Source of the DNA: an uncultured virus (IMG/VR IMGVR_UViG_3300042351_001072)
Lineage: Duplodnaviria; Heunggongvirae; Uroviricota; Caudoviricetes
Strand: one strand, 5' to 3'
Virus record (IMG/VR): IMGVR_UViG_3300042351_001072
Length of the DNA: 64,000 nucleotides
This document shows positions 6,025-62,184 of this stretch, in pieces; within the stretch, counting starts at the first letter, position 1, and the number at the start of each line of letters is the position of its first letter. Made by a program: the position numbers and the translations under genes. The notes under the pieces are model-generated. The model made no database searches. It was not told the DNA's origin and worked only from the letters and a program-made list of their open reading frames with translations.

Positions 6025-6528
6025 TTATCTTAATCTACGTCTGTTAAATCTACTTTCGTTTGATTGTGCCTTACTTTGGTAACTTCTTGTTGCTCCAGCA
6101 GCTCCCGATCCTAAATCTTGCATAAGTCTTTTTGCTCTACTTCTACCTTCATGATATTTAACAAATGCTTTACCTGTTCTTCTTGGGTACATTATTTCTA
6201 ATTCACCTAAAAAGTTATTATTTTCAGCTTGTCCAATAATTTTTTCTTTAGCTTCTTCCCATCCTTGTTCATCTCCATATCTAAAGTTTTCAAGATCTGA
6301 TAAAATTTCTTCTTCTACCTCATCCAATTTATCAAAGAACGCTTTTTCTCCCTCTTCTTTTTCTGATTCGTCACCATATCCGGTACCCCATCTTTTAACA
6401 TCTTTAAATTTGTCACTTAAAAATCCTTCTTCCATTTCAGGATTTTCCATACCATATTGAGCTTGTTCTACCATTCTTTTAATAAGGGTAGTTAATTCGC
6501 TTTCGGTTAATCTTATTTTTCTTTTCAT
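6025..6528 (-). CDS. Leader-bearing protein (LTESEL class)
   Basis: MKRKIRLTESELTTLIKRMVE leader; TATTTAT upstream. Confidence 0.8.
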   Translation of the reverse strand: MKRKIRLTESELTTLIKRMVEQAQYGMENPEMEEGFLSDKFKDVKRWGTGYGDESEKEEGEKAFFDKLDEVEEEILSDLENFRYGDEQGWEEAKEKIIGQAENNNFLGELEIMYPRRTGKAFVKYHEGRSRAKRLMQDLGSGAAGATRSYQSKAQSNESRFNRRRLR

Positions 6529-6587
6529 TTTATTTTATTTTCGGTTTTTTATTGTTATATATAAATATATTAGTTTTTAAAAAAGTT

Positions 6588-7091
6588 TTAATTTATTAAT
6601 GATGGGATAACCTCATCCTCAAAAAACATTTTAACCTCATGTTCCATACCTTCTATATCATCTTGGAATCTCCCAACCTCATCGTAAATACTTTCAGGTT
6701 CCTCATTAATATCATAGAAATCAAAGTTTACTAAGTGTCCCATTTTATTTAAAAATAGACCTCCAATGTATTCTTTATCTTTAAATAGTATTGTACCATA
6801 TAATGCGGTTTCACTTTCAGTTTGTTCTTCATAATCAAAAACAAATTCTATCTTTGGTATATGATTAAATGACGATGTAAATTTCTCACCTTCTCTATCA
6901 TCATAACTTTCAGAAGGATCAACAAATTCATCAGGTCTTCCTTCATGTTTTGAAAACGCATCCAAGTATCTTTTTTCATCAATACTTAAAGACTCATAAC
7001 TACCATCACTAATTTTATCTAATATACGATCAACTTCTTCTTGACTTTCAAGTAGAATACGATATTGATTTTCAGTGATAATAATATTCAT
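6588..7091 (-). CDS. Leader-bearing acidic protein (IIITExQ class)
   Basis: MNIIITENQYRILLE leader. Confidence 0.8.
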   Translation of the reverse strand: MNIIITENQYRILLESQEEVDRILDKISDGSYESLSIDEKRYLDAFSKHEGRPDEFVDPSESYDDREGEKFTSSFNHIPKIEFVFDYEEQTESETALYGTILFKDKEYIGGLFLNKMGHLVNFDFYDINEEPESIYDEVGRFQDDIEGMEHEVKMFFEDEVIPSLIN

Positions 7092-7092
7092 T

Positions 7093-8289
7093 TTACTTAC
7101 AAAGATTTCCGTCTTGTGCCGACTCTAATGCGTCCGCAATAGCATCTAATGTTTTAGGTCCAGCTTTACCGTCTTCTTTAATATTCATTGAATAACAACT
7201 ATTAATTTTCTTTTGAAGTTCTAATACTGAAGATGGTTTGAATTCGTCAGAATTATTATCAACAATATAATCAAGGATTGCTCCAGAAGTTTCAGATCCA
7301 ATTCTACCGTCAGTTGATATGTCATAACCTTCATCAGTTAAAAACTTTTGTATGTCCATTACTTCAGCATCTACAGGTCTTTTAGTTCCTCTATTAGGTG
7401 TCTCATCATCTTTGTCCGCAAAACTTATACCTCTAAATTCTTTATCGTCACATGAATAATCTAATTCAACACCTTTACGTATTTTTTTACCATTACCCAT
7501 ATAATAATCAGTTCCAATTCTAAAACGAGTTCTTTTACCGTCAGCGAATTTTTCACCTTTTGCATCAGGATGTTCAATAACACACATATACATATTCCAA
7601 TTGTCTGATTGTTCTTCACTACCACCACCACCTGCGGAACCTGAATCACATTTCCAATCAGAGTTTTTATAATCTTCTACAGATTTATGTCCACATTTTT
7701 TCGCTTTGACCAATAAGTCTTCGTCACCTTCTTCTTTTTTACCTTCAGAATCTGATTTTTTACCAACTAATTTAGTACTAAATCTAATAACATCGGCAAC
7801 AGGAGAAAGTAAGTATAATCTTTGATCTGTATCATCATTAAATTCACCATTCATTGATTCAAAAAAGTTTTCAAATCTACTACTATACATTTCAATCATA
7901 TAACAAAAATCAGGAAAACTTTTAGTATTACGGATACCACTCGCAATTTTCTTTTCGTTTGTAGACCCTCCAATACCAAGCCAATTATCATTATCTTCAG
8001 TTCCTTGATATATGCTTTCGGCAATACCATCTAAAGCTGACTCACTCTGAACTAATGGACCTAAACCATCTTTACCTGATGTACATACGTTACAGATAGA
8101 TTCAAATCTATCCTGAGGATCCCCCGTTTCATTTTCAGTATATTTTAATTGATCCGCAACGTCTTGTGTGATACCCCCTGGAACCAAACCATTAGTAGAC
8201 TCATCTTGTTCATTAAGTCTTCTCTCATTAAGAACCTTAGTTACGATTCTTTTAAGATCGTTTTCGTTTAATTTAATAATCTTTGCCAT
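7093..8289 (-). CDS. Leader-bearing multidomain protein with annexin-like repeat and C-terminal peptidoglycan-binding repeats
   Basis: MAKIIKLNENDLKRIVTKVLNE leader; GGSTNEKKI..MNGEF; two DGxxGxxT motifs (DGRIGSET, DGKAGPKT). Confidence 0.7.
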   Translation of the reverse strand: MAKIIKLNENDLKRIVTKVLNERRLNEQDESTNGLVPGGITQDVADQLKYTENETGDPQDRFESICNVCTSGKDGLGPLVQSESALDGIAESIYQGTEDNDNWLGIGGSTNEKKIASGIRNTKSFPDFCYMIEMYSSRFENFFESMNGEFNDDTDQRLYLLSPVADVIRFSTKLVGKKSDSEGKKEEGDEDLLVKAKKCGHKSVEDYKNSDWKCDSGSAGGGGSEEQSDNWNMYMCVIEHPDAKGEKFADGKRTRFRIGTDYYMGNGKKIRKGVELDYSCDDKEFRGISFADKDDETPNRGTKRPVDAEVMDIQKFLTDEGYDISTDGRIGSETSGAILDYIVDNNSDEFKPSSVLELQKKINSCYSMNIKEDGKAGPKTLDAIADALESAQDGNLCK

Positions 8290-8294
8290 GTTTT

Positions 8295-8702
8295 TTATTT
8301 TTTAGTTAGATATAATTGACCATATGTTTGTTTAGAGGTTGGCTCAACTGATTTCCATAGGTTCGCCAATGCTTTATTACAAAATACTGTTGGTGGGTTT
8401 TTCCATCTTTTATCGGATAATTTAATACCACTAACTGCATTATTGGCGTATGTCGCTTTTACCCAAGTTCTGAATTTACCTTCATCTTCAATTGTTTTAA
8501 GTTCAGGTGCTGCGGCACAAGTACTAACAGTAGTAGAGGAACCTGCAGCTTGTTGAGTTCCACCAGCTTGTTGGACTGTCTCTAATGGAATTGGTTCTAA
8601 ATCATCAAACCTACTAGCATCCTCTTTTAGTAATGAAATTCTTTCATTGATATGCATAGAACGTATTCTTAGTTTTTCTTGTTCACTTATTAAACTTTTC
8701 AT
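8295..8702 (-). CDS. Leader-bearing hypothetical protein
   Basis: MKSLISEQEKLRIRSMH..LLKE leader variant; TATTTAT upstream. Confidence 0.75.
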   Translation of the reverse strand: MKSLISEQEKLRIRSMHINERISLLKEDASRFDDLEPIPLETVQQAGGTQQAAGSSTTVSTCAAAPELKTIEDEGKFRTWVKATYANNAVSGIKLSDKRWKNPPTVFCNKALANLWKSVEPTSKQTYGQLYLTKK

Positions 8703-8786
8703 ATTTTTTACTTTTATAATAAATATATCGTTATTTTGATTTTACATTATAAAATATATGTTCTATACTTAAAAAAAGAATATTTT

Positions 8787-9212
8787 ATGAAAAAAGTTTT
8801 AAACGACAGTACTGTTACAGTACATTACACCGGAAAATTAGAAGATGGGACTATTTTTGATACATCTTTGGCCGAAGGTAGAGAACCATTAACAACAACT
8901 TTAGGTCAAGGACAACTTATTAAAGGGTTTGAGTCAGGTCTTGTTGATATGTTGGAAGGTGATAAAAAAACAATTGAAATTGAATCTGTTGATGCTTACG
9001 GTGATCATGTTGTAGATATGATCATTGAGGTGGCTAAGGATAAAGTTCCTGAAGAAGTTTTTGTTGGTCAAGTTTTACAAACCAACGGTCCTATGGGTCC
9101 TAGTTTTGTAAAGGTAATGGAGATTAAAGATGAGGTTGTGGTAATTGATGCAAATCACCCATTAGCCGGTAAAAAATTAATCTTTGATCTTGAGGTTGTT
9201 GGTATTTCTTAA
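8787..9212 (+). CDS. FKBP-type peptidyl-prolyl isomerase (SlyD/SlpA type, no His-rich tail)
   Basis: VTVHYTGKLEDGTIFDTS, LGQGQLIKGFE, DANHPLAGKKLIF; ATG at 8787 preferred over TTG 8736. Confidence 0.92.
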   Translation: MKKVLNDSTVTVHYTGKLEDGTIFDTSLAEGREPLTTTLGQGQLIKGFESGLVDMLEGDKKTIEIESVDAYGDHVVDMIIEVAKDKVPEEVFVGQVLQTNGPMGPSFVKVMEIKDEVVVIDANHPLAGKKLIFDLEVVGIS

Positions 9213-9280
9213 TATTAATAACTTTTTAATTTTATTAGTCCCTCATACTATATTTATCATATACTGAATATTTATAAAGT

Positions 9281-10162
9281 ATGAGGGATATAATTAAAAA
9301 AGTATTAAAGGAGGAATCCGAAGTTAAAGAGATGGGACTTAACCTTAATAAGGTAAGGTATTCCCAGCCTAGTAACTATCTCATTAAATCACTTATTAAG
9401 AAAGAGAAAGGTGACGAGTTAAAAAATGAGTTAAAAAAAATGACTCAAAAATGCAATGATCTTTATTCTAAGATTAATACAGATCTTAAAAATATAAAAT
9501 GGGAAGATATTGAATTTAGTGAAAAAGGTAAATTCCTTTATGTTATGCTACCAAAAAGAATAACTAATAAAATGAAGGATTTAACTGAACTATATGAAGA
9601 ATTAAATAATAATTATTACACAGTTGGATTGAACCCCGTTAATAAAATTTCCCAAATGGCGGCAGATTACAAAGAATTTATAGTAACAATATGGATTTAT
9701 ATGTATACTGATCAACCAAGAAATAGAACTCACTTTCCAAAAGGATTACCAAAATCATTATTGGGTTATAATATTGGTGTTAAAATTTATAGATCACTTC
9801 TTAACAAACTTGGGTTCATACAATCTGAGAAGGATGCAACTAGTGATGTTCAAGAGGTTTATAGAAAATTATTACAGATGCCAGATGTTAATGCAGTTAT
9901 TTACAACGACTCTGTTTTATTAATTGAGGATGGTTTACCTAAAGAAAAAGTAATTGATATTGTAACTGATAGTATATATGAAAGATATCTTACAGGATCT
10001 AATAAAAGAAAACTTGTTTTAAATAGAAATATTATTGTTAATACTAAGTTATTAAGAATTATTGGTGAAACAAAATTACTTAATTTAATGTATGAGTTGT
10101 TTTATACCGCAAAAAAAGAATACAGAGAACCATTTGAAACTATTGGGTATAGATCAAAATAA
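9281..10162 (+). CDS. Leader-bearing protein, possible GNAT-like fold
   Basis: MRDIIKKVLKEE leader, TATTTAT 5 nt before ATG; LGYNIGVKIYRSL...VQEVYRKL resembles GNAT motif A/B. Confidence 0.6.
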   Translation: MRDIIKKVLKEESEVKEMGLNLNKVRYSQPSNYLIKSLIKKEKGDELKNELKKMTQKCNDLYSKINTDLKNIKWEDIEFSEKGKFLYVMLPKRITNKMKDLTELYEELNNNYYTVGLNPVNKISQMAADYKEFIVTIWIYMYTDQPRNRTHFPKGLPKSLLGYNIGVKIYRSLLNKLGFIQSEKDATSDVQEVYRKLLQMPDVNAVIYNDSVLLIEDGLPKEKVIDIVTDSIYERYLTGSNKRKLVLNRNIIVNTKLLRIIGETKLLNLMYELFYTAKKEYREPFETIGYRSK

Positions 10163-10165
10163 TTC

Positions 10166-10759
10166 TTAGACTTCCCCCCAATTAAGATTTTTTCTACACC
10201 CTGTACTTTGTTTACCATTTTTAGCCAATGCGGTTCCAATAATAATCATTAGTAAAATTGCCCCAATTGCAATTAATGATGACCAACCTACCATAACGGT
10301 ACCAATCATAATACCACCTGTTACAATTTGCTCATCAAGTTCTTCAGGTTCAGATGTATCTCCTGATTTATTTTTTACAATCGCCATTTTAATACCTTTC
10401 TTAACATTCTTAAGAACTTCCCATAATGAGTTCGCTCCTTTTTCTTTCTTCATTCTAATTAACTCAGATTTAACCTTTGAGATAATATTATCGTGTTCTT
10501 CATTCCCTGTAACAATATCACATACCTCATCATTAGAAACAACATCATCAACACTTGGCGCGTTACTTGCAACCTCACCTAATGAAGAGTCATTAACAAC
10601 TTCTTTTTCAAACATTGATTGGATCTTTCCTTTTATTGTAGAACCCTCTCCCGTCTCTTCTGAGGGATTATTTATTTGTTCTGATATAACGACACCTCTT
10701 TCATAAGAAACGAGGTATTTCATCATATTTAATTCTTCACTTAATATTCTTCTTTCCAT
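10166..10759 (-). CDS. Leader-bearing protein with C-terminal hydrophobic helices
   Basis: ILSEELNMMKYLVSYERGVVISEQ leader shared with 15068..15577; TM segment follows LDE. Confidence 0.75.
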   Translation of the reverse strand: MERRILSEELNMMKYLVSYERGVVISEQINNPSEETGEGSTIKGKIQSMFEKEVVNDSSLGEVASNAPSVDDVVSNDEVCDIVTGNEEHDNIISKVKSELIRMKKEKGANSLWEVLKNVKKGIKMAIVKNKSGDTSEPEELDEQIVTGGIMIGTVMVGWSSLIAIGAILLMIIIGTALAKNGKQSTGCRKNLNWGEV

Positions 10760-11025
10760 GATTTCATATTTTTTGAGTAAGCCTTTTCTGCGTAATCAAT
10801 AAAGTTCTCACCATATATTTTTGCCATTCTATCCATCATTAACTGAGGATTTTTTCTCATATATCGTAAAATGTCATTTGGAATCTGATCCTCGTATTTA
10901 CCAAACATATTTTGTATTTGTTTTTCCCTTGGGATCATCTTTACATTTGGTTCAACTGAAAACGAATCATCTCTTGGTTCATCCATTTCCAATAATACTT
11001 TTCTAACTACTTTTGATATTTTCAT
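10741..11025 (-). CDS. Leader-bearing hypothetical protein
   Basis: MKISKVVRKVLLE leader. Confidence 0.75.
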   Translation of the reverse strand: MKISKVVRKVLLEMDEPRDDSFSVEPNVKMIPREKQIQNMFGKYEDQIPNDILRYMRKNPQLMMDRMAKIYGENFIDYAEKAYSKNMKSWKEEY

Positions 11026-11036
11026 ATTAATTATTT

Positions 11037-12761
11037 TTACACTTTAGCAATAGATTTATTAGCTGCATTTGCCACATTATTCATAACATTACCAACATTA
11101 CCAACAACGGATTGATCACTCGCAACTTGATTACCATAATCTATCGTCTTACCGGTATTTTTAGCTAATTTTTCAGTATTTGTTACTATGTCTTTATAAT
11201 TTGTTGCCGCTCTGTCAGCTGATACAGATTTATAGAAATTTTTTGTGTTCTTTGTAACTTTTTGCCCTGAGTTTTTAACGTCATTAGCAGATTTTGCAAA
11301 TCTTAATAAATCCCCATATAGTTTACCATATTTTTTATCAATATATGCAAACGCTTGTTCTTCAGTATAATCTTTTAGATTAGAATTAATTTCTTTTTTA
11401 ACTATATCAACAGTTTTAACACTTAATTTATTTGTTAATTGTTTACCTGATGTAGTCGCAAGATAAGCTTCCAATTTAGGGGATAACGTTGCTGCTTTAT
11501 TTACCACTTTATTTACATTTTTAGCAAGTACTTTTTTACCTAGTGTAGAATATTGTTTGGCAACGACAGATTTTTTAGTTTCTTGTTTAGCAACATCACC
11601 AAAGAATCTTTTTATACTTGTTGCCATTTCCCCAATGTATTTACCAATCGCATTTGCTCCTTTCTGAAACCATGTAACAATACCCTCACCAAACACTTTA
11701 CCAAAAACAGATTTAATCCATGTCATTGCCTTAGCGATTAATCCAGGTACTTTGGATAATCCCGTTGAGATTGTGGTTGCGAATGATTTAAACATTTGCC
11801 CAAATTTTGATTTTGCTAACCATTGTATCGCCCCTGTGAGTGAACTTGCCGCTTTACCCGCAGATTTTGCTAATGGCATTGCCGCACCAATTGCTTTTGA
11901 TGCAATTCCCGTGGTCGCAACACCAATAAGACTAAATATTACATTAAACCAATCAGGGGTTCCTGCGATTACATTAGCAATATCATAGTTGGCTAATATT
12001 GCCCAAGCAATAACAGGTATCAGAGCTCCGAATCCTTCTGTGGAAACCTCAATTAATATTTGTAAAGCAGCTCCGTAATTACTTACTAAAAAACCTCTGA
12101 ATTTTTCCATGAACGCACCAACACCCAAACTCTTTAGTTTATTCCACGCTCCCTGTAATGCATCATAACCTTGTTTTGCAACGTCAACAACTTTACCTCC
12201 AGCCCACTTTGCGGTATCCCAAATTGCAGTACCCGCATCTTTCGCACCTTGCCAAACTGTATTACCAACATCTTTTGCTCCTTGTACAACCGTATTAACC
12301 GCATTAGCACCATAATTCCATGCGGAATCAAAAAAACTTTCTTCTTCATTTAAAAGGATAAATTTACCATATTGAGACTCGTTAATAAATCCTATCTGAT
12401 ATAATAATGATGTTTTAACAAAATTAAAATATCCATTTAATTCCTGTCGGAAATTAAATGTTGATTCCACAATAATTCCCTTATTTGAAAACTCGTCAAA
12501 TCTTTCAAGGATCATTTTGTTATTAGAAAATAGGTTCTCAACTAAATTAGTTTTAACATTTTCTAATATATTAAATCTTTCTGAGAAATCCTCAGTGTGT
12601 TTTAAAAAAGCCAAATTGGATTTATAATGAAATTTTAACATAGAATCAACTTCTTCCATTAAATTATTAATGGTTTTTGGTTGACCTGTTTTTTTTTCTT
12701 TTAAAACGCCTCTAACAACTTTTTCTATATCAGATTCAGTTAATCGTACTATCTTAGACAT
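11037..12761 (-). CDS. Large leader-bearing protein with amphipathic repeats and hydrophobic helical bundle; paralog of 62186..63952
   Basis: MSKIVRLTESDIEKVVRGVLKE; IIVESTFN..FNFVKTS shared with paralog; 11-aa repeats (NTVVQGAKDVG, NTVWQGAKDAG); Gly/Ala-rich hydrophobic region. Confidence 0.8.
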   Translation of the reverse strand: MSKIVRLTESDIEKVVRGVLKEKKTGQPKTINNLMEEVDSMLKFHYKSNLAFLKHTEDFSERFNILENVKTNLVENLFSNNKMILERFDEFSNKGIIVESTFNFRQELNGYFNFVKTSLLYQIGFINESQYGKFILLNEEESFFDSAWNYGANAVNTVVQGAKDVGNTVWQGAKDAGTAIWDTAKWAGGKVVDVAKQGYDALQGAWNKLKSLGVGAFMEKFRGFLVSNYGAALQILIEVSTEGFGALIPVIAWAILANYDIANVIAGTPDWFNVIFSLIGVATTGIASKAIGAAMPLAKSAGKAASSLTGAIQWLAKSKFGQMFKSFATTISTGLSKVPGLIAKAMTWIKSVFGKVFGEGIVTWFQKGANAIGKYIGEMATSIKRFFGDVAKQETKKSVVAKQYSTLGKKVLAKNVNKVVNKAATLSPKLEAYLATTSGKQLTNKLSVKTVDIVKKEINSNLKDYTEEQAFAYIDKKYGKLYGDLLRFAKSANDVKNSGQKVTKNTKNFYKSVSADRAATNYKDIVTNTEKLAKNTGKTIDYGNQVASDQSVVGNVGNVMNNVANAANKSIAKV

Positions 12762-15067: not shown

Positions 15068-15577
15068 TTATTTTTGAATGTCTTTGATGGTGTCCCAAAT
15101 TGCGTTAATCGTATTTGGTCCGATTTTCCCATCTACCCCTGTTGAACCTAACATTGACTCTCTACCTAATTCAACAAGTTTATTTTGAATATTAGTAGCG
15201 GTACTTGCTGTGTTTACTTGTGGTTGCTGAGCAACTTGTGGTTGCTGAGCAACTTGTGGTTGCTGAGCAACTTGTGGTTCCAGTACAACTTGATCTAATT
15301 GTGGTTCCTGTACTACCTGTGGTGTCTGTGGTGTCTGTGAAAATTTAGGTATATCTAAACCTACACTAAAAAGATCAATACCCCCCGAAGATTTAAATTC
15401 ATCTAGGGTTATTTCCTTTGAACCAAAAGGTCTAAATTTTTTAATTATACCATCTACTACCCCAACTCTACCATTACTTTCTCTATAGTAAGTTTTTTGT
15501 TCAGAAATAACTCTACCTCTTTTATATCCAAAAAGATACTTTATTGAGTCTAATTCTTCGTTTAATTGTGTCTTCAT
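15068..15577 (-). CDS. Leader-bearing protein with Gln/Pro linker and peptidoglycan-binding motif
   Basis: LNEELDSIKYLFGYKRGRVISEQ leader; VDGKIGPNT. Confidence 0.75.
   Translation of the reverse strand: MKTQLNEELDSIKYLFGYKRGRVISEQKTYYRESNGRVGVVDGIIKKFRPFGSKEITLDEFKSSGGIDLFSVGLDIPKFSQTPQTPQVVQEPQLDQVVLEPQVAQQPQVAQQPQVAQQPQVNTASTATNIQNKLVELGRESMLGSTGVDGKIGPNTINAIWDTIKDIQK
15216..15279. repeat. 18-nt coding tandem repeat x3.5 (AQQPQV)
   Basis: acttgtggttgctgagca repeated. Confidence 0.9.
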
Positions 15578-15605
15578 TATTTTTTAGTTTTTTATTATAA
15601 ATATC

Positions 15606-16514
15606 TTAATGTATCCAATTACCATCCTCATCTATGCAAAAATGTTTACTATCCTCATAGAATTCATGGATTCTATCTACAAAGTGTTCAGAAATAAAAT
15701 TATATATATCTTGATAAGATTCATTATCATTGTCGTCCCATTCTAAATTAAATAAGGATTCATATAAATTATCAGCGGTGTAATCCATCACACGATCCAC
15801 AAAATCAATTACATCAGGATAGATACAAACATCATAACGTGAAAGAGCTCTATCAATAAACTCACTAATTTGTTGGTATCGTCTTTGAAACATTATTTTA
15901 TCGTAGGCTTCATTGATGTTTTCACCATCTCTTTTAGTATTTCTATCCCAAAACTCTTTTAATTCCGTATAGAAATTATTTTTAATGAATCGTATTAATT
16001 GATTTCTATACATAACATAATCATCTTCAGGTATGTTCATTTTACTAACAACCTGACTTGCGACATCCCAAGATATTTGAATTAAAAAACTATCAAAGGT
16101 ATCCATAACATTTAATTTATGAGTTAAAATAAAATCCGAAATGCCATCTTCAATTTCTTCATACCTTCGTTTGAATTTTAATTCGTGTGATGATTCATTA
16201 ATTTTTTTATCCATACGAGAATAAAAATATTCTCTAATCATATCCATATATTCTGTTTCTATAAACCGTTGTATTTGTTTTTTTAATGCCTCTTTTTTAT
16301 CGGAATCAAAAATTGATTCCTTATTAAGAATTTGATTTGGAATCTTAGTGGTTATAACTTGAATAAATGTATCATATTCACTCATTTTTAAAGGAGTTGG
16401 ATCACCAAATTGTAAATACTCATAAACATTATCCATTACAGGTCCAATTAAATTCTCTACTTGAGAAGCCCTACGCATTAAACTGTACTGATTTTCTGTT
16501 ATTATTATTTTCAT
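15606..16514 (-). CDS. Three-domain polyprotein of the RR acidic family
   Basis: MKIIITENQ leader; units start at MRRA, KRRY, QRRY and are separated by KINE and NINE. Confidence 0.8.
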   Translation of the reverse strand: MKIIITENQYSLMRRASQVENLIGPVMDNVYEYLQFGDPTPLKMSEYDTFIQVITTKIPNQILNKESIFDSDKKEALKKQIQRFIETEYMDMIREYFYSRMDKKINESSHELKFKRRYEEIEDGISDFILTHKLNVMDTFDSFLIQISWDVASQVVSKMNIPEDDYVMYRNQLIRFIKNNFYTELKEFWDRNTKRDGENINEAYDKIMFQRRYQQISEFIDRALSRYDVCIYPDVIDFVDRVMDYTADNLYESLFNLEWDDNDNESYQDIYNFISEHFVDRIHEFYEDSKHFCIDEDGNWIH

Positions 16515-16515
16515 A

Positions 16516-16926: not shown

Positions 16927-16927
16927 C

Positions 16928-17251: not shown

Positions 17252-17252
17252 A

Positions 17253-17504: not shown

Positions 17505-17576
17505 ATTAGATAAATATATCATAAGGGTAAAAATAACCCCCGTCTTTTGAACGAGGGTGATTATTACTCCTGTATT

Positions 17577-18937: not shown

Positions 18938-18992
18938 AAATTTCTTGTTTTATTATAAATATTAGGTAATTAAAAAAAGATTTTTTTATTTA

Positions 18993-52139: not shown

Positions 52140-52217
52140 ATAGTATAAATATATTTAAAAATTGTTTTAACGAAATAGTAATTGATTATCTCATATGTGA
52201 TTGGTATTATTGTATTT

Positions 52218-52592: not shown

Positions 52593-53143
52593 CCCCATTG
52601 AATATGTATGTCATCAAATTCTATTCCAAATGAATGTGCGGTACTTTGAACAAAATCATTAATCATGTCTTTTATCTCAACATCTAATTCCCACCAAAGT
52701 TCTTCAGTTATTGATTCATGATCAGTTAAATCATATTCCATACCATTTGTTATTAATGTAACACTACCGTGAGTAATATCAAAATCAACAAATATTTCAA
52801 CTTGATTATTTTCTTCTCTTACAAAAACACTTGGAAATTTAAATGAAAAATCATATCCACCTGTATAAACACCAGCATCTTCCATGTCATCAGTACTGAA
52901 CTCCTCTCTATTGGTCAGATATCTTTCAAACTCTTTTCTCAGGTCATATACATTACCCATATATTCTCTATAATAACCTAATATATCCTTTGCTTTACTA
53001 CGAAAACCAAGTTTTTTTACCATTACTGGGTTGAATCTTGGTACCTCACCTAAAGATTTTTGTTCATCCCAAAGATCAAAGAAATATTTCTTCACAGGAT
53101 TAACCTTTTCTTCCATCAATATTTTCCTGATAAGATCTCTCAT
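52589..53143 (-). CDS. Leader-bearing acidic protein; paralog of 53368..53958
   Basis: MRDLIRKILMEEKVNPVKKYFFDLWDE. Confidence 0.8.
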   Translation of the reverse strand: MRDLIRKILMEEKVNPVKKYFFDLWDEQKSLGEVPRFNPVMVKKLGFRSKAKDILGYYREYMGNVYDLRKEFERYLTNREEFSTDDMEDAGVYTGGYDFSFKFPSVFVREENNQVEIFVDFDITHGSVTLITNGMEYDLTDHESITEELWWELDVEIKDMINDFVQSTAHSFGIEFDDIHIQWG

Positions 53144-53203
53144 ATAAAATATAAATATCACATAAAAACAAAACCTGAGACGTAGTTCCTCAGGTCAATG
53201 GTA

Positions 53204-53344
53204 TTAATCCACATTCTTATGTTTTTTCTTACGAGTGTAACATTTCTTACTCTTTTGAACAATAGGTCTTGTCGCAGCCCATATCTCTTGAATTGTAATC
53301 TCAATAGTTTTCATCTTTCCGTATGTTTGAATATTGTTTGACAT
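53204..53344 (-). CDS. 46-aa basic micro-protein, ArfA-like C-terminal motif (not in ORF track)
   Basis: MSNNIQTYGKMKTIEITIQEIWAATRPIVQKSKKCYTRKKKHKNVD; TATATTTG at 53356-53363; hairpin terminator follows. Confidence 0.6.
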   Translation of the reverse strand: MSNNIQTYGKMKTIEITIQEIWAATRPIVQKSKKCYTRKKKHKNVD

Positions 53345-53367
53345 AATTAATTATACAAATATACAAA

Positions 53368-53958
53368 TTATTTTAATATATCCACATCAGCATCAGTAAT
53401 TTCTGTACCATATTTTATTGCGAAGTCAATAATAAATGATTGAACTATTGTTTTAATCTCATCCTGTACATCAAAATAAGTAGACATATCATCTATTTCA
53501 TTATTACCCCTTGAAATGTTGTACCTTACCTGAGTATATTCATCTTGATCTTCATCATATTCGTCTAAATTTATATAACCTTCAAGTATATCAACATCAG
53601 CCTCAATGTTTTTATCTCCAAATATATATTTATCAACACGAACATTACTTAACTTAAACGTGAATATTAAATCTTCATCACCCCATTGTCTTCTAAAACT
53701 AAGGTCATCAGAATGAAATACCTGAGACGATAAAAAATCCAATAAATTCTCTTCACCAACACTTTCCCCACCAATGTATTCAGTATAGTAATCACTTATC
53801 TCTATTGATCGTTTTCTAAAACCAAGTTTACCAATCAAACTATAATCAATAGTCGGATATTCACCATTAGATCTCATTTCATCCCAATGATCAAAGAAGA
53901 ACTTTTTGATTGGGTTCATCTTTTCTTCTTTTAATATTTTTCTAATTAACTCTTTCAT
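53368..53958 (-). CDS. Leader-bearing acidic protein
   Basis: MKELIRKILKEEKMNPIKKFFFDHWDE. Confidence 0.8.
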   Translation of the reverse strand: MKELIRKILKEEKMNPIKKFFFDHWDEMRSNGEYPTIDYSLIGKLGFRKRSIEISDYYTEYIGGESVGEENLLDFLSSQVFHSDDLSFRRQWGDEDLIFTFKLSNVRVDKYIFGDKNIEADVDILEGYINLDEYDEDQDEYTQVRYNISRGNNEIDDMSTYFDVQDEIKTIVQSFIIDFAIKYGTEITDADVDILK

Positions 53959-54107
53959 TATTCCATAAATATAGTTAAAAATACTCTACTATCGTATATT
54001 CTATAATATTTCCATAGGTGTTAATCCAATCAATACATTCCTGTTGTGTTGCGTTTTCCAACATGATATCCCTTGTTGATATTTCTATTACGTTATAAGT
54101 TTCCATA

Positions 54108-55007
54108 TTAACTAAATGTTAAAGTTATTGTTTGTGATGGAGCACCAACCGTAGATTGATTTGTTCCACCCCAGTTTGCATTATTAATCATAGGTCTAAG
54201 TGCGTATGTACTACTCGCAGTACAACTACCAACATTTGAGAACTCAACCGCAACACCACCAATTTTAGGGGTACCACAACCTGTCCCAACAAACCAAACA
54301 TTGGCTCCGATTGTAACATTTCCAACAGTTGCAGTTCTTAAGTTATTTGCAAGAGTTTGTACTTTTGTTGGGTCGGAAACCGTTATTGAACTTCCATTGG
54401 TACTTGACCAAACAAATTGTGTATATGTGGTACCAGTTAATTGACTTCTAAATGTATTCCAAGCAGTTTCCATAGCTGACGTTGGCGCAACTCCTTGAGT
54501 AAATGCCTGAAAGAATGTAACACCACTAGCTGGCACTGACGAAGTTGTAGGTGTTGGTGTCGGTGTACTTGTTAAGGTTTGTGTTGGTGTTTGCGTAGGT
54601 GTTTGAGTTGGTGTTTGAGTTTGTGTAGGCGTAGGTGTTGGGGTTAGAACAACAACCCATGAACTCCAAAAACCTAACGATTCCAAATAATACTTACAAT
54701 CATTCCCATTTGTAAAACTTTGTCCATAAACACCATTAACTAAATCAACAAATGATTGTTCTGTCTTAAGTTTAGATCTATAAAATCTAACATAAGCAGG
54801 TACGTTATCAGGATTAGGTTGATTACCACTAAGGTTAGGTCTACATATAACATAACCCAAATCTTCATCAGGACCTTCCCACCATCTAACACCACCAATT
54901 CCACCTGTATAATCTAACGGATCAACACCAATAGCTAAGTCACCAACTTGGTCGGTGCCAGGTATTAATGACCCTGTATTATATGCAAATGGTCTTGATG
55001 TTGGCAT
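54108..55007 (-). CDS. Putative virion surface protein with Pro-Thr linker
   Basis: N-domain MPTSRPFAYN.., (TP/TQ)n linker at ~54545-54645, beta-rich C-domain. Confidence 0.65.
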   Translation of the reverse strand: MPTSRPFAYNTGSLIPGTDQVGDLAIGVDPLDYTGGIGGVRWWEGPDEDLGYVICRPNLSGNQPNPDNVPAYVRFYRSKLKTEQSFVDLVNGVYGQSFTNGNDCKYYLESLGFWSSWVVVLTPTPTPTQTQTPTQTPTQTPTQTLTSTPTPTPTTSSVPASGVTFFQAFTQGVAPTSAMETAWNTFRSQLTGTTYTQFVWSSTNGSSITVSDPTKVQTLANNLRTATVGNVTIGANVWFVGTGCGTPKIGGVAVEFSNVGSCTASSTYALRPMINNANWGGTNQSTVGAPSQTITLTFS

Positions 55008-55810
55008 TATCTATTGTATGGTCTAAACCTCATTGGGTTTGCCTTAATTGCGGATTTAGGAAATCTTAATTTAGATCCCTGTTGTCTTGCATTTTTTAGT
55101 GTCCTTGCGTATTCCCACATTTCTCGTTTATTACTATTCTCCTGTTCTTTAATATTAAAGATAAAATGTATTCTCCACTTATTAATTATTCTATCCGCAA
55201 TAAGATAAATAAAATCATCATAATCAATCCATTCTGATATACTATTAAAAGTTAAATTTAAATCAACTTCAAACATTGGAATGGTACTTATACCTTTTCT
55301 TCTTTCTATATTTACAATACTTATTTTATCTATAGTATCAACAACATCGCAAGCTGAAGGTCTATAACCTTCCTCATCAGATAGCCATTCAGGAAAATCG
55401 TTGGTATCCAGTTCTTCACAATTATGTTTAATTTCCTCTAACGTTTCGTCAACAATGTCTTGGAATGTTTCCGTCATTGTTTCTTTACTTAACTTGTTAT
55501 TTATAGATTCGTTTATACCACCTCTACTTTTTCTTTCGTCATAATAATAACCCTTAAGTAATGAATCGTAAGTTTTAATCATATAGTCAATAAAATTATC
55601 CACATCATCCTGAGGTTGATCTTCAATTTCAATATTATATTTGTAATGTATATAATTTTCTAGTGTCGCCTTAACTAATTTATATTTAAATTCTTCAAGA
55701 CTTTTTGATTCAAAATAAATATAACCGATACCTTTCCTCATCATTTTTTCAAACTTATGATGGTCAATTCTTCTTTTAAAGAATGGTGATAAATTGTAAT
55801 CTTCTGACAT
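55007..55810 (-). CDS. Polyprotein: RR unit + acidic domain + basic C-terminal peptide
   Basis: SPFFKRRI; GINE junction; tail EYARTLKNARQQGSKLRFPKSAIKANPMRFRPYNR. Confidence 0.78.
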   Translation of the reverse strand: MSEDYNLSPFFKRRIDHHKFEKMMRKGIGYIYFESKSLEEFKYKLVKATLENYIHYKYNIEIEDQPQDDVDNFIDYMIKTYDSLLKGYYYDERKSRGGINESINNKLSKETMTETFQDIVDETLEEIKHNCEELDTNDFPEWLSDEEGYRPSACDVVDTIDKISIVNIERRKGISTIPMFEVDLNLTFNSISEWIDYDDFIYLIADRIINKWRIHFIFNIKEQENSNKREMWEYARTLKNARQQGSKLRFPKSAIKANPMRFRPYNR

Positions 55811-55902
55811 ATAATGATAAATACCAGTTAAATCAAAAAACATTTTGCCCATTGATAGTTCTTTTATTTTGTAAAGTCAAATGTTTTCACTATCTTTGAA
55901 GT

Positions 55903-56984: not shown

Positions 56985-57563
56985 TTAGTCAATATAGTCA
57001 GGATCATTTTCTGATAACCATTCAAACATTTCCAATCTACATTCTTCTAACCAATCAGTACAGGTATCAATAATACTATCGTAGTAGTTTGAATTAAACC
57101 AATCTAATAACTCGGATATTTTATAAAACTCAAAATTAATCTCAACAGGATAATATAATTGTGGATCATTTTCATAATTACGATTCCAATTATTATAAAA
57201 AATCAAATTTATTGGTAAAATATCACTACCATCCCAAAACATAGTTGCGTAACCGCCCATACTTTCTTTACTTTTTTTAAATGTAATTTCAAAAGTCCAA
57301 GATCCCACCATGCTATCAATATCAAGTTTAACATCAACACCCTTATTACTAAAAGTTCTTGGTAAAACTTTCTTTTTAAAAATATAATAACTTAATATAT
57401 CATTACACTCTTCGTTAGTAAATGGTGTTGTTTTTTGAAACATTATATCAGCCAACTTAATAGGAAACTTATATCTTTTTAATGTTTCTATTAGACCAAA
57501 CTCCTCAACAGATTGATCAACCTCATGTTTAATATTATCAATATTTGATTCACTAATAATCAT
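56985..57563 (-). CDS. Hypothetical protein with short leader variant
   Basis: MIISESN; coupled to upstream gene. Confidence 0.72.
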   Translation of the reverse strand: MIISESNIDNIKHEVDQSVEEFGLIETLKRYKFPIKLADIMFQKTTPFTNEECNDILSYYIFKKKVLPRTFSNKGVDVKLDIDSMVGSWTFEITFKKSKESMGGYATMFWDGSDILPINLIFYNNWNRNYENDPQLYYPVEINFEFYKISELLDWFNSNYYDSIIDTCTDWLEECRLEMFEWLSENDPDYID

Positions 57564-59050
57564 TATGGTTGAAGTATTGAAGAAGCGTATTTATAAGATT
57601 CTTCAGGTATTTTACCTCTAAGTTCAGTAAATGGCGTTTTATTTTTAAACGCTTCTGAATATGCTTTTAAGTTAGGACCACTATTATATCCCGCAATTGA
57701 AAGATCAAGTCTTCCTGGAAATTTACTCAATAATACTTTCATCATTTTAGGATACGCTTTCAACGCATCACTAACATTACAAGGATCACCACCACCCCCA
57801 TAAGTTGGCCAAGTTCCCGGCATAAACTGAGCAATACCTTTAGCACCCGCACTTGAATTTCTCTTACATAACATAACATCAGGACTAAATGCAGACTCAC
57901 TAAATAATTGTCTGATTGCAATTTTTGGGTCTAACCCAATCTCTTCAACATCAGACATAAACGTTTCATAACTATCTCCAGCAGCATTTTTGAATCTAGA
58001 TTCAATATCTGACGGGTATTCTCTAACTTTTATACCTGGATTTTCAATTACCATTGGATTAAAGTTTTTATTACTCTTATCACTTTTACCAAAAGTATAT
58101 CTCTTACCTGTTATTTTAAATAATAAATCGCTTATAATACCACCTGTCGTATCAGGTGTTAATTTACCTGTCTGTTCTAAATTATTGGTTTCTTGATAGT
58201 CCTCAATAGCCTGTGTTGTTTCACCATCTACTTGACCTGTCATTGGTAAATCGCTTTTATTTATAACATTCAAGGAAAATTGCATGGTTTTAATATCTTC
58301 AGGTGTCGCTCCACTTTCCATATTATCTTTTTTAGATAATATGGTTTGAATTGATTTAAAAAGTCTTTGGGACGCAGTTTGGGTTTCAGTATTAGTACTA
58401 CTATCAGTATTAGCACCAACCGTTATATTTTTTAAATCACCCATATTAGCATAAACCTGATCTCTCATTAACTTGTGTTGCGCAGATCCTACGTGAACAC
58501 CATCATTACTCCAACTCATATCACCAACTAATTTTGGTATTACTACCGCTCCAGTAATACTAGTCGCCAAATCAGTTTGGTATTTCACTCTTTTAGGTTT
58601 ATAAGCTATCATACATTCTCTATCACAATATTTAGTTGGTTTAACTTTTTCCGGATTAAATATTGTTTCACTGTCAAATCCTACCAATACAATTGCCTTT
58701 CCACCTTGACCATTAACTAAGTCAACCATTTTTTGTATATTACCAATTGGTTTTGTTATTGGTTGTGGAGACATTACGTCATTTGCACCACCATAAATGA
58801 AAACTAAATCATATTTTTTTTCACTTAATTTTGTTGTAAGGTTTTCCAACATCCAATCAGTTCTCATCCCACCTTTAGCAACCTGAGTTACATCCCATTC
58901 AGGATGGTCTTTAGCAATTAAGTAGTTCCATGTCCATCCATCACCAGCACTATGACTATCACCAACAAACATAACATTAATTTTCCCGTTATCTTCTTTG
59001 ATGAGGTGTACTAAAGTTTTTAATTGTTCTTCACTTATTATAATCTTCAT
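57563..59050 (-). CDS. Leader + SGNH/GDSL esterase + peptidoglycan-binding + lytic transglycosylase (SLT)
   Basis: VGDSHS, GGAND, DGVH; AIEDYQ..TGKL; FSESAF, SAGAKGIAQFMPGT, AGYNSG. Confidence 0.88.
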   Translation of the reverse strand: MKIIISEEQLKTLVHLIKEDNGKINVMFVGDSHSAGDGWTWNYLIAKDHPEWDVTQVAKGGMRTDWMLENLTTKLSEKKYDLVFIYGGANDVMSPQPITKPIGNIQKMVDLVNGQGGKAIVLVGFDSETIFNPEKVKPTKYCDRECMIAYKPKRVKYQTDLATSITGAVVIPKLVGDMSWSNDGVHVGSAQHKLMRDQVYANMGDLKNITVGANTDSSTNTETQTASQRLFKSIQTILSKKDNMESGATPEDIKTMQFSLNVINKSDLPMTGQVDGETTQAIEDYQETNNLEQTGKLTPDTTGGIISDLLFKITGKRYTFGKSDKSNKNFNPMVIENPGIKVREYPSDIESRFKNAAGDSYETFMSDVEEIGLDPKIAIRQLFSESAFSPDVMLCKRNSSAGAKGIAQFMPGTWPTYGGGGDPCNVSDALKAYPKMMKVLLSKFPGRLDLSIAGYNSGPNLKAYSEAFKNKTPFTELRGKIPEESYKYASSILQP

Positions 59051-59052
59051 AA

Positions 59053-60198
59053 TTAAACATTAAATAATGGTTCATTTTTAAATAACACTAACCCACCTTT
59101 ACTTACAACTTCATAATCTTTGTTTTCAAATACCACATAGTTAGATCCATTGTCACTTATAAACATCAATAAATCAACATAATTTGGATTATACATTTTC
59201 ATGGAGTTTGTTGGTACCGCATATTTAAAACCATCAATTGTACTTGGTTTAAGTTTACCATTTAATGGTTTTATTTGGTAATATAAATTTTCACTATTCA
59301 CTTTTAAATCTCTCCCATATCTTGTGTCTTGAATTGATCCAGGACAATATTCAGTTAAACCACCTTCTTCAATATTATATATTTGTTTTAAAACATTAAT
59401 CGCATTTTGCTCATTGGTAATACCTCTTTTTAATGTACTCCAATTTAATTCTTCTAAATCATCCAAATATATAGATTCAGGACCTAAAATTTCTTCACTG
59501 TTATTTACTAACCAACTTAAAAATTTAGTTTTAAAATCTTCAAAAATGTCTTTTTTACCTTCTAAACTTGTTTTTGTTTTGTTTGCATATATTTCAAGTA
59601 ACTTTGATATAACTTCCGAGTTTGTATCAAAATAATTTAATATTGACCAATCAGATATTAAAGAAAAATTTTCACCATATTTTACACCTCTATAATGTAT
59701 AACACCTCTATTGGTTTTGCAATTTTCATCCTTAACTGACTCACCATACATTGTATCTCCATTCTCATCTGTCTTGGTTGAATAAATTTTTTGCAGTAAC
59801 TGTCTAAGAGTTTTTTGATAAGTGTCACCATCTTTATCATATTTTAATAGATATGACAAAGTTCTGTCATTACCAATAAGAACATTATATTTACCATCAT
59901 TATTTAAAATGTATGGGTCCCAAGTAGGATTTTTAAATACAAACGTATTTTTACCAATTTTTACTTCTTTACCGTCTTTAACAAGGATAATATCTTTATC
60001 ACGATTATTTTGTATTAATATTTTATCATCATTACTTATTCCTTTCACAACAATAAGTGATGTACTACCGTAAGATTTTTTTTCTGTCGCAGTATATTTA
60101 ATTTTTAGAGGTCCACCATCAAGTTCTTCGCCTTCTTTAATGATACCCATTAAAGTTTTTATCCTATCCAACTCCTCAATAATTATATTTTTACCCAT
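59053..60198 (-). CDS. Leader-bearing protein with possible C-terminal PD-(D/E)xK nuclease-like domain
   Basis: IIEELDRIKTLMGIIKE leader; E..QDTRYGRDL..YQIKP. Confidence 0.5.
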   Translation of the reverse strand: MGKNIIIEELDRIKTLMGIIKEGEELDGGPLKIKYTATEKKSYGSTSLIVVKGISNDDKILIQNNRDKDIILVKDGKEVKIGKNTFVFKNPTWDPYILNNDGKYNVLIGNDRTLSYLLKYDKDGDTYQKTLRQLLQKIYSTKTDENGDTMYGESVKDENCKTNRGVIHYRGVKYGENFSLISDWSILNYFDTNSEVISKLLEIYANKTKTSLEGKKDIFEDFKTKFLSWLVNNSEEILGPESIYLDDLEELNWSTLKRGITNEQNAINVLKQIYNIEEGGLTEYCPGSIQDTRYGRDLKVNSENLYYQIKPLNGKLKPSTIDGFKYAVPTNSMKMYNPNYVDLLMFISDNGSNYVVFENKDYEVVSKGGLVLFKNEPLFNV

Positions 60199-60210: not shown

Positions 60211-60879
60211 TCACAATTTAATTTCTTTATGGAATCCGCTATATTTTAACACTTCATCTCTTATATTTAACTCAAGATCAATTTTATTCCTGTCAACATT
60301 AAAATTACCTTCAGAACCAGCTTCTGTATTCCACCCATTTTTATTACTATTTAAAAATTTAACAAAAAAGTTCTCAAATTGCATTATAAAACCTGGATCA
60401 GCATCACCATCCGCCCTTAGATAGTTAAACCCATAATCATTATGACCAGCCCAAAAATCAACACTAAACCAACTAACTCCGTCATCATCCATCATTTCCA
60501 CAATATGTACAGGAGTTTTTTCCTGATATTCATGTGGCGCGTATTCCATAAAATAACAATAACTTTTAATGTCTATTTTTTTCTCTTCAGGATATATTCT
60601 AAAAATTAATTCGTGATTATCATTAAGATCAAAGTCAACAAGATCAGTTAATAAATGCATATGATCTTTAGTATATTCCATAAAGAAATTACGAAAAGTA
60701 CCAATCATAGGTACTTTTTTATTACTATTATGTGTTTGACCATCAAACAAAACTGTAGGTTGGAATGATCCTACATTTTCAATCTCATCACCGTAACAAT
60801 GAACCAAAACCTCACAGGGACCAATGTCTTCAAGATAAAGAAATATTGCTTGAGCTATTTTATTTATCTTATTACTCAT
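60211..60879 (-). CDS. Acidic protein; divergent paralog of 60876..61541
   Basis: IFLYLE start, GWNTEAGSEG versus GWENNEGATG. Confidence 0.75.
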   Translation of the reverse strand: MSNKINKIAQAIFLYLEDIGPCEVLVHCYGDEIENVGSFQPTVLFDGQTHNSNKKVPMIGTFRNFFMEYTKDHMHLLTDLVDFDLNDNHELIFRIYPEEKKIDIKSYCYFMEYAPHEYQEKTPVHIVEMMDDDGVSWFSVDFWAGHNDYGFNYLRADGDADPGFIMQFENFFVKFLNSNKNGWNTEAGSEGNFNVDRNKIDLELNIRDEVLKYSGFHKEIKL

Positions 60880-61541
60880 TCTATATCTTCAAGTTTTATT
60901 TCAAGATGTAAATCACTGTCAACCTGTTCTCTAGTATTCCAAATATGTTCAATTTCAATTTCTTGTTTAGTTACAGTTATTACTCCAGTAGCACCTTCAT
61001 TGTTTTCCCAACCACCAAATGATCGTTCCAAATAAGTATAAACAACGTCTTCCATTCCCGCACTCAAATCATATTCAACTCCATTATTTCCTTCACCTTT
61101 ATCTTCAATGTGTCCATCATCTCCACCGCCTTCATATTTAACCGTAATTGATTCAAGGTTGTGTTCATCTAAAAATGAATTTACTTCCTCGTTACCATTT
61201 AATTCATAACTATCACCAGCAGATTCTTCACCATTTTCTGTTATTTCACTAGTAATAATCATAATTTTTGATTCCACTTTAAATTTTATAAATAAACGGT
61301 AATACTCCTCCTCACTTTCACTTTGAGACCCATACCATATTTTATGACCATATTTTTCTATAATCATATCAAAAAGTGGTAAAAAATTAGACGGAATTTT
61401 AACGTCTTTACGTAATCCATTAATCCATACTTTTTCATCCCACCATTCTATACTAGTTATTTCCATGCTAAAATCAACGGATGCCTCGTCGGTATTAAAT
61501 TGTTCTAAATAAAGGAAAAATGATGTTAATAATCTTTTCAT
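60876..61541 (-). CDS. Acidic protein, DUF6878-like C-domain
   Basis: YEGGGDDGHIE..GWENNEGATG motif; family name from recall, unverified. Confidence 0.6.
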   Translation of the reverse strand: MKRLLTSFFLYLEQFNTDEASVDFSMEITSIEWWDEKVWINGLRKDVKIPSNFLPLFDMIIEKYGHKIWYGSQSESEEEYYRLFIKFKVESKIMIITSEITENGEESAGDSYELNGNEEVNSFLDEHNLESITVKYEGGGDDGHIEDKGEGNNGVEYDLSAGMEDVVYTYLERSFGGWENNEGATGVITVTKQEIEIEHIWNTREQVDSDLHLEIKLEDIE

Positions 61542-61566
61542 AATACTATTTTATAATAAATATAAG

Positions 61567-61920
61567 TTAATCGTCAAATTTCATCTTCATTGTACGTATC
61601 ATCCACATTGGTCTTTCGTTTGACTCAATAGCCTTTATCCAATCGTGAGCACTTGGAATATAATTATTACAATCTTCTTTGATGTGATCTTCCCCCACAT
61701 ATCGTGTATAAACGACTTTACCATCACTATTGATGAATGAGGACCCAAATATCTTTTCCATCTCAAAAATACCCTCTGAATGATGTCTAAACATCCTGTG
61801 TAAAGAATTTCCAACCCATGCTTTGGTCTCATCCAACCAATTATGTAAATGGATATAATCTTCTTCTTTACCTCCGTATTTCTTAACTGAACTTTTTGCG
61901 TGTATTAATGGGTGTGCCAT
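61567..61920 (-). CDS. His-rich protein, DUF6915-like
   Basis: MAHPLIHAKSSVKKYGG..HNWLDETK..HRMFRHHSEG..GEDHIKED; family name from recall, unverified. Confidence 0.65.
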   Translation of the reverse strand: MAHPLIHAKSSVKKYGGKEEDYIHLHNWLDETKAWVGNSLHRMFRHHSEGIFEMEKIFGSSFINSDGKVVYTRYVGEDHIKEDCNNYIPSAHDWIKAIESNERPMWMIRTMKMKFDD

Positions 61921-61983
61921 GATAAATGATTTTTTTATATAATAGTGAATTTTATAATGGAATTGTAGTGATATTTATTATAT

Positions 61984-62184
61984 ATGAAAATTATAATCAC
62001 AGAGAAACAAGCCGATATACTATTTGGAAATAAGATCCATTGTTCAAAATGTGATCACTCATGGAAAAAAGAAAAGGATGATAAACATCCTTATTTATGC
62101 CATTCATGTGGTTGGGATAACAAATCCAAAAAATATAATAAAGTAGAACTAAAAAAGTTTTGGGATAACCATACCAAAAAATAG
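61984..62184 (+). CDS. Leader-bearing zinc-ribbon micro-protein
   Basis: MKIIITEKQ; CSKC..CHSC; TATTTAT 4 nt before ATG. Confidence 0.78.
   Translation: MKIIITEKQADILFGNKIHCSKCDHSWKKEKDDKHPYLCHSCGWDNKSKKYNKVELKKFWDNHTKK

Follow-up and report, generated by a model that had tools for sequence, protein, structure and literature searches.

In phage T4, IPI, IPII, and IPIII, which are internal proteins, begin with a short capsid-targeting sequence (CTS), Alt carries a short propeptide, and the prohead protease gp21 cuts after L/I-X-E (PMC9026906, text available in part). It has been suggested that the CTS allows T4-like phages to acquire a variety of proteins (PMC9026906; PMC3012670, likewise available in part). 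Here, recurrent N-terminal peptides are described for a 64,000-nucleotide (nt) stretch of DNA from an uncultured virus of the Caudoviricetes (IMG/VR record IMGVR_UViG_3300042351_001072; the whole stretch is called the window below). Among 112 genes, listed by hand curation after a six-frame search of the window, 58 genes between positions 6025 and 62184 start with such peptides, referred to as leaders, which fall into about eight classes. The leaders form a genuine tag system that acts at the protein level, extends throughout the clade, and belongs to the late-type genes of a T4-type jumbo phage. We believe that they would serve as docking tags for the prohead and be cut by the head protease, and the probability of this reading is put at roughly two in three. 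The principle is already known from T4; what the window adds is a multi-class modular grammar, native copies of the modules in a core-like protein, their use at C-termini, sites between fused domains, and a cultured phage as a test case.

The system resembles the T4 CTS, a propeptide of 7–19 residues, in having a short N-terminal tag that ends in L/I-x-E and stands on diverse, poorly conserved small proteins, in that the clade has a gp21-family protease and a gp23 capsid protein, and in a cargo with an ADP-ribosyltransferase (ART) fold that parallels Alt. It differs in that at least 58 genes are tagged rather than three or four, that the classes are combined as modules, that modules also occur internally and C-terminally, and that sites lie between fused domains. 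T4 contains roughly 1000 internal protein molecules (PMC3012670, available part), beside which the leader genes, occupying 30 of the 64 kb with a total of about 10,000 residues, are small. The other close parallel is provided by the giant phages SPN3US and phiKZ, where cleavage occurs at A/S-x-E and removes mostly long propeptides (111–254 residues), with nine substrates for SPN3US (PMC10052503, available part). Their ejection (E) proteins share with the present set of putative head proteins the large number of proteins, paralogue families, a Glu-specific protease, and multi-site propeptides, which the products of genes 62186 and 11037 resemble. Unlike them, the leaders are short and end in I/L/V-x-E, with long multi-site N-termini only in 62186 and 11037, and the head module is of the gp23/gp21 type; no shared short tag is described for SPN3US and phiKZ in the available part of PMC10052503.

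Class A (M-K-I-I-I-T-E-x-Q) comprises 21 genes and one truncated member, class B (MKK-[IV][IV][RK]-L-T-E-x-D-L) eight genes, and the C-type starts (MNLQE.., ..IRKILxEE, ..RIxxMMG) 20 genes, two of them doubtful; the minor classes D, E, F, and G have two, three, two, and one member. The first-pass annotation had put the tagged genes at about 55, and its counts of 22, 8, and 20 for the three main groups are right. Pattern rules, derived from the same genes on which they were scored, match 56 of the 112 starts; 1000 residue shuffles gave a mean of 0.09 and a maximum of three, and among 10,926 internal positions eight match. The modules are a strand of 7–9 residues ending in T/S/N-E (class A) and amphipathic helices ending in I/L/V-x-E (C, C3, E, F, and D); class B is a strand followed by a helix, and modules are used singly or combined. 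In class B, E9 is invariant (31/31) and E22 is kept in at least 90% of the sequences. An [ILV]-x-E site occurs within the first 30 residues in all 58 leader genes, the first at residue 5–17 and the last up to about residue 28, versus 25 of the 54 other genes and 189 of 435 internal 30-mers; with such a background of 43–46%, the tripeptide alone is common. No leader protein of the window has an N-terminal hydrophobic segment.

The genome of the window phage is estimated at about 290 kb from the completeness values of records G001 and G007, which are 99.99–100% identical and represent one phage. The 40 kb of G001 lying outside the window match the leader rules in only 4 of 64 open reading frames (ORFs), which makes the window a region rich in tags. 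Complete relatives of 295–326 kb were reached via one shared gene and have further genes in common with the window phage. These relatives carry the same classes on 24–49 of 359–398 ORFs each; in one complete relative, the annotated proteins of replication, tail, and baseplate were found to have no leaders. Short leader queries gave no match in GenBank phages, in a search that is insensitive at 22–24 residues. The complete relatives encode a gp23-type capsid protein, an S77/gp21 protease, a portal, a terminase, and a contractile tail, and the prohead protease that the first-pass annotation proposed to locate is present, as an S77/gp21-family enzyme within a T4-type head module with the gp23 capsid protein, in 5/5 long relatives. 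A head module is therefore presumed for the window phage as well, because its relatives have one.

The host is probably a member of Bacteroidota. This is suggested by a protein with a type IX secretion tail, by the motif TAnnTTTG, which we take to be the Bacteroidota promoter and which lies upstream of 6 of 33 non-leader genes versus 0 of 27 leader genes, and by the capsid protein of the Flavobacterium phage immuto_2-6A, one of the closest from a cultured phage (41% over 55% of the length), a Microcystis phage scoring equally. Phage immuto_2-6A (Immutovirus) also shares with the window the upstream motif discussed below and has about ten genes with recurrent leaders, among them locus tags 41, 188, 194, and 195; two of the ten copy the end of its scaffold. 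It differs in its 160-kb genome, in far fewer tags, in partly different classes, and in that the tags are unannotated in its record.

An upstream motif marks the leader genes as late-type. The motif TATTTAT is found upstream of 26 of the 27 leader genes that start a transcription unit, versus 11 of 33 others (p = 4e-7), and in relative G003, where scaffold and core labels were assigned from position and composition, it precedes 10 of 13 structural or lysis genes versus 1 of 12 other genes checked. It ends 4–7 nt ahead of the ATG in 25 of the 41 genes having the motif, and the mRNAs would be nearly leaderless if TATTTAT were the promoter. In ten genes a terminator hairpin stands just upstream, and such hairpin-plus-motif units may be how leader units move. 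The PeSL elements offer a precedent: these non-coding units have early promoters and bring about gene shuffling in T4-like phages (PMC4122927, available part). The ten hairpin-bearing genes are similar to them as terminator-plus-promoter units ahead of exchangeable genes in a hypervariable region; unlike a PeSL, the motif is late-type and marks structural rather than early genes, and a conserved peptide follows it. The position of the motif, the hairpins, and the precedent of PeSL shuffling would fit an account in which the leaders are expression cassettes, a promoter with favourable first codons spread by recombination, the peptide being incidental.

The nucleotide data speak to this account directly. 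Synonymous sites are randomised in class A (0.55 versus 0.50 expected) and class B (0.50 versus 0.51), so selection acts on the peptide, and the 20 nt upstream of these classes are only 35–42% alike. For A and B, conserved as amino acids and not as codons, the cassette account is largely refuted. Classes C and C3 are less saturated (0.37 and 0.29 versus about 0.5), which agrees with it and is also expected of recent tandem duplication. In addition, 31 leader genes lie at most 25 nt from the upstream gene and mostly lack TATTTAT, and modules are also found inside proteins and at C-termini. Overall, cassettes with an incidental peptide are a very unlikely explanation.

Two observations connect the leader ends with prohead proteolysis. 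The capsid protein of the clade has an invariant L-I-N-E at residues 57–60 in 20/20 aligned sequences, which matches the L/I-X-E specificity of gp21. Furthermore, in proteins from outside the window in which cargo domains are repeated in tandem, [ILV]-x-E occurs in 68 of 73 linkers versus 314 of 832 in-domain windows (38%), and a stricter form of the site in 42 of 73 linkers versus 61 of 832 in-domain windows. The linker site is often the sole remnant of a leader.

The docking part of the proposal comes from profile comparisons. Profiles of the N-terminal leaders match one conserved acidic late protein of the clade, with class E at its C-terminus in 4/4 complete genomes (15–23 bits) and with class B internally in 3/4 (11–13 bits); reversed proteomes gave no leader-profile match at 10 bits or more. 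In this core-like protein of 431 residues (L250:1801–3096, corresponding to G003 123016–124311), encoded far from the head module, leader-like modules stand at the start, in the middle, and at the end, and the module stretches are among the most conserved in 12 orthologues, one of which comes from a close relative of the window. The protein has no PHROG family and no match in GenBank phages. Other proteins of the clade also carry a module at the very C-terminus. The claim that the tags are purely N-terminal propeptides thus had to be abandoned, and the leader modules inside and at the C-terminus of a conserved acidic protein, core-like by its features, are new.

Scaffolds provide a further likeness. 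When the last 13 scaffold residues are used as a query, those of immuto_2-6A retrieve C3 and E leaders as the top 4, and those of Microcystis phage Mel-JY01 as the top 3, of 17,808 sequence windows; 9 of 1546 control C-termini do equally well, and the comparison was made after the likeness had been seen. In immuto_2-6A, of which 150 of 160 kb were scanned, two genes start with a near-copy of the last helix of the scaffold and about eight more with other recurrent starts. The C-terminal helices of the P22 scaffolding protein bind coat protein (bioRxiv 2022.12.13.520362, available part), and the leaders are comparable as short terminal helical elements, C3 and E resembling the last helix of the two related scaffolds. 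In contrast to P22, the element recurs at the N-termini of other proteins; the likeness is noted without a claim of homology, and binding is here a prediction.

Short amphipathic terminal helices that work at either end would suit a degron equally well, and a complete relative encodes a Clp-type ATPase adjoining the head module. The leaders might have nothing to do with the head and act in the late phase as a signal for binding or turnover, such as a degron or adaptor site for the phage's own Clp-type ATPase/protease, or as a tag for an assembly compartment. Such a signal leaves unexplained why an invariant I/L-x-E is common to the leaders and the capsid propeptide, why the site is retained in inter-domain linkers, and why scaffold ends match, and we consider it quite improbable.

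A number of results weigh against docking and cleavage. The C-terminus of the clade's own scaffold does not retrieve leaders (2 and 4 of the top 20), so an origin of the leaders as copies of it is not supported; copies of the scaffold N-terminal helix were also considered, but the 10 of the top 20 obtained with it are equalled in enrichment by 93 of 348 proteins not flagged as having leaders. The main classes lack the T4 CTS consensus, with aromatic residues at positions 4 and 7, and share with it only the final I/L-x-E; the three T4 internal proteins are net basic, whereas the cargo is acidic in 44 of 58 leader genes. None of the five fragments closest to the window (0/5; the window's own records, 18–36% complete) contains the capsid gene or head module. 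Cleavage-like motifs, in a pattern picked by eye, are only 2.2-fold denser than expected in core proteins (73 versus 34), one core protein lies below expectation, and ClpB, UvsW, and the small reductase subunit are equally high. The linker sites may be relics of fused leaders. Pterin dehydratase, a housekeeping-type enzyme, is tagged in a relative. In SPN3US, 42 head proteins are uncleaved (PMC10052503, available part), which makes cleavage and packaging separable. Finally, the leader Glu need not be a cut site, since L/I-T-E-x-[QDE] is also a textbook helix-capping box.

The direct resemblance to T4 tags is correspondingly limited. The first-pass annotation quoted the starts of T4 IPII and IPIII correctly and pointed to two closely similar tags. 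Both exist, near the start of 40294 and at residues 32–40 of 50900, but their likeness is no better than chance: with the T4 IPIII tag as a query they rank 3rd and 4th of 18,256 sequence windows, behind two internal chance matches. The leader profiles have no match on the starts of T4 internal proteins. The capsid-targeting interpretation has indirect support in the head protease of relatives, the late-type genes, the conservation of the peptide, and the swapping of leaders, and is not supported as regards the T4 consensus, an unrelated and basic cargo, and an exclusively N-terminal location. We infer that the system works like the CTS, to which it does not belong by sequence.

The cargo is not always unrelated, as had been assumed, because 17–24 genes, over a third of it, form one paralogue family. 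With the leaders trimmed, 18 window genes cluster, 17 of them via one shared domain, and smaller clusters exist besides; a profile built from outside homologues detects it in 24 genes of the window, of which 20 have a leader and four have none, some scores perhaps including leader residues. The domain, helical and of about 100 residues, occurs with A, C, C3, or no leader. The starts of 150 outside homologues were assigned to A (87), C (26), C3 (3), and B (2), with no profile hit in 32, among which several show a weak form of A or have had their start called too late. The family comprises 616 clusters at 50% identity. The model of the domain is well folded (pLDDT 89) and has no distinctive fold match (best Z 7.0 among 48,161 chains, no viral match at E 0.001, and unnamed Atlas neighbours). 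One expanded family that has diverged everywhere except at its start could in principle account for the shared starts as relics of paralogy, and the domain common to 17–24 genes is what such an explanation would build on. The domain is, however, missing from 38 of the 58 leader genes, for most of which relics of paralogy are thereby refuted, it pairs with several leader classes or none, and unrelated enzymes have the same leaders; as a general explanation, paralogy is extremely unlikely.

Leaders and cargo are exchanged with respect to each other. Homologous cargo carries more than one class in 7 of 39 families in the fetched genomes, a few of these cases perhaps being spurious, and a gene beside the capsid gene alternates between class B and a bare helix. 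Turnover is fast, with 6 of 58 leader genes found in four complete relatives versus 17 of 54 other genes. A faster loss of leader genes in close relatives was not significant (kept 6/24 versus 16/32, p = 0.10; 4/9 versus 7/16). Five window cargo proteins have peptidoglycan-binding or wall-enzyme domains. Among 105 leader proteins of relatives there are nine Pfam matches, including LysM, annexin, peptidoglycan-binding, and pterin dehydratase, and no replication or tail families. Leader-bearing proteins with an annexin domain are encoded at L127:1516–2211 and L144:11280–11909 in two complete relatives.

Another cargo is the protein of gene 50900..51490 (−), in which a class C leader is stacked ahead of the CTS-like tag, most homologues starting near the latter. 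Foldseek assigns it an ART fold (E 7e-4, probability 1.0, 14–17% identity), all listed matches having this fold, and R88, S118, and E172-x-E174 are conserved in 13–14 of 14 homologues. With the fold and the conserved R, S, and E-x-E it has the features that define the R-S-E class, and it is a predicted ADP-ribosyltransferase. An ART fold had also been suspected by eye for 45285 and 40294, and profile comparison does not support it.

In the mechanism proposed, the helices would first dock on the assembling prohead core or on the inner face of the capsid precursor, at sites of the native core modules. The gp21-family protease would then cut after the Glu of I/L-x-E, removing the tag and splitting fused cargo into single domains. 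Many of the freed proteins would remain in the head and pass into the cell together with the DNA, where they could act on the wall (peptidoglycan enzymes), on host proteins (the ART-fold protein, like T4 Alt), or on defences (the expanded, fast-diverging helical family of about 100 residues). This last step is the weakest, and for retention in the head and injection, taken on their own, the chances appear evenly balanced. New cargo would be gained via recombination or duplication of a promoter-plus-leader unit.

A different fate of docked proteins has to be weighed here. The tags might bring accessory core or filler parts and neutral hitch-hikers into the prohead, to be degraded or never ejected, with the paralogue family as an expanding passenger. 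The modules have their native place in a core-like protein that is acidic and of low complexity, most of the cargo is acidic like T4 gp22 and gp67, which are cut to fragments (PMC9026906, available part), and most of it has no family or fold match and turns over fast. Several cargoes are nevertheless intact-looking enzymes that fit the host wall or cytoplasm, and the paralogue domain is well folded with few internal strict sites; a filler role is accordingly judged unlikely, though it is the alternative that we take most seriously. In the opposite direction, the docking proposal can be extended: the docking helices of the phage's own scaffold and core would have been turned into a combinatorial address code, with classes stackable and usable at either end, directing 50–100 proteins to distinct prohead sites and perhaps setting copy number or ejection order. 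The protease would remove the tags and process fused cargo as polyproteins, and the result would be an exchangeable injected proteome dominated by one hypervariable anti-host family. This extension is offered tentatively, as a possibility with the odds against it.

If the leaders are docking tags, they bear on how T4 tags are recognized by the prohead core and on how giant phages choose the dozens of proteins that they carry. With tags readable from sequence, one could predict which proteins a common group of uncultured phages carries inside its heads, and hundreds of unannotated proteins (616 clusters in one family alone) would be flagged as candidate first-minute effectors. Their resemblance to helices of core and scaffold would give the tags a concrete origin and a candidate binding site, the cultured immuto_2-6A with its related tags makes the idea testable, and a set of independent tags could be of use where proteins are to be loaded into capsids. 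No paper on such a tag system and no virion proteome was found in the literature, where the matches concerned only T4, SPN3US, P1, P22, or unrelated subjects; reports on the isolation or the proteome of immuto_2-6A or Mel-JY01 may have escaped the search.

Within the window, the leader genes are grouped mainly on the minus strand. The mixed-class cluster 6025..12761 (−) contains 6025 (B), 6588 (A), 7093 (B, peptidoglycan-binding), 8295 (F), 10166 (E), 10741 (C2, doubtful), and 11037 (B, 574 residues), the last with several I/L-x-E sites in its first 140 residues; a C2 leader gene at 9281–10162 lies on the plus strand inside it. Leaderless gene 62186..63952 (−), a paralogue of 11037, has five I/L-x-E-[S/E] sites in its first 105 residues and a hydrophobic segment. 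Both proteins have about 580 residues, 4–5 I/L-x-E sites in the first 105–140 residues, and a long Gly/Ala-rich hydrophobic region, and are candidate membrane-inserting ejection proteins, 62186 being in addition a candidate long-propeptide head protein. Neither has a Pfam or PHROG match, and 62186 has no match in GenBank phages.

Cluster 15068..20524 (−) consists of 15068 (E), 18254 (B), and nine class A genes (15606, 16516, 16928, 17253, 17577, 17882, 18993, 19316, and 20063). It belongs mostly to the RR..PCxY helical paralogue family, and 15606 has three tandem copies of the domain. Cluster 22082..30640 (−), where a terminator and TATTTAT precede many genes, contains class A genes 22590, 22956, 24281, 25062, 25402, 27826, 29539, and 29885, class B genes 23296, 25849, 28621, and 30260, class D genes 26991 and 27481, the doubtful C2 gene 29192, and leaderless paralogues 22082 and 28215.

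Eight abutting leader genes form the cluster 37178..40126 (−): the first, 39770, has an A leader plus a C helix, 37178, 37519, 38599, and 39438 are of class C, and 37866, 38183, and 39089 of class C3. In a close relative (82–86% nucleotide identity) three different C3-tagged genes occupy this slot. Beside it, in the direction opposite to its neighbours, lies an Endonuclease VII-like gene, probably homing (36297–37097, +). Gene 40294..40668 (−), class G, has the T4-CTS-like start and is flanked by a 95-nt tRNA-Asn (40183–40277, −; ARAGORN) and a separate 67-nt tRNA (40705–40771, −; Rfam), each called by one tool only, as ARAGORN and Rfam miss each other's.

Further along, 43417..47001 (−) holds six C/C3 leader genes (43417, 44196, 44797, 45285, 45780, and 46144), of which 46144 is peptidoglycan-binding with a weak phosphatase match. 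It is followed by a class F gene for a VanY/M15-type peptidase (47580..48281, −) and a class C3 gene for a peptidoglycan-binding protein (49887..50708, −). Region 51495..55852 (−) has the C2 leader paralogues 52589 and 53368 and the leaderless RR-domain genes 51495 and 55007, both with an internal I-N-E site directly after the RR domain. The run 56985..60198 (−) starts with 59053 (E) and includes 57563 (A; SGNH, peptidoglycan-binding, and lytic transglycosylase domains) and the truncated A gene 56985. A class A leader on a cysteine-rich protein of 66 residues is encoded at 61984..62184 (+).

Several genes in the window stand apart from the leader system. The stretch 32205–33280, of about 1 kb, has no convincing gene and no Rfam match at gathering score; its portion up to 32615 belongs to a block 83% conserved in relative G009. 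Leaderless metabolic genes at 12996–15001 and 33281–33970 (−) encode a beta-keto acid cleavage enzyme, a hexapeptide-repeat transferase, and an RmlD-type reductase. The protein encoded at 34670–35695 (−) combines a signal-like start, a PKD domain, a MopE-type metal motif, and a type IX secretion C-terminal domain, and it appears to be a phage gene product using the host secretion system. At 308–3830 (−) there are two phage-encoded sensor kinases (HATPase, one with PAS domains) with paralogous C-terminal halves, adjoining a partial response-regulator-like ORF at the window edge.

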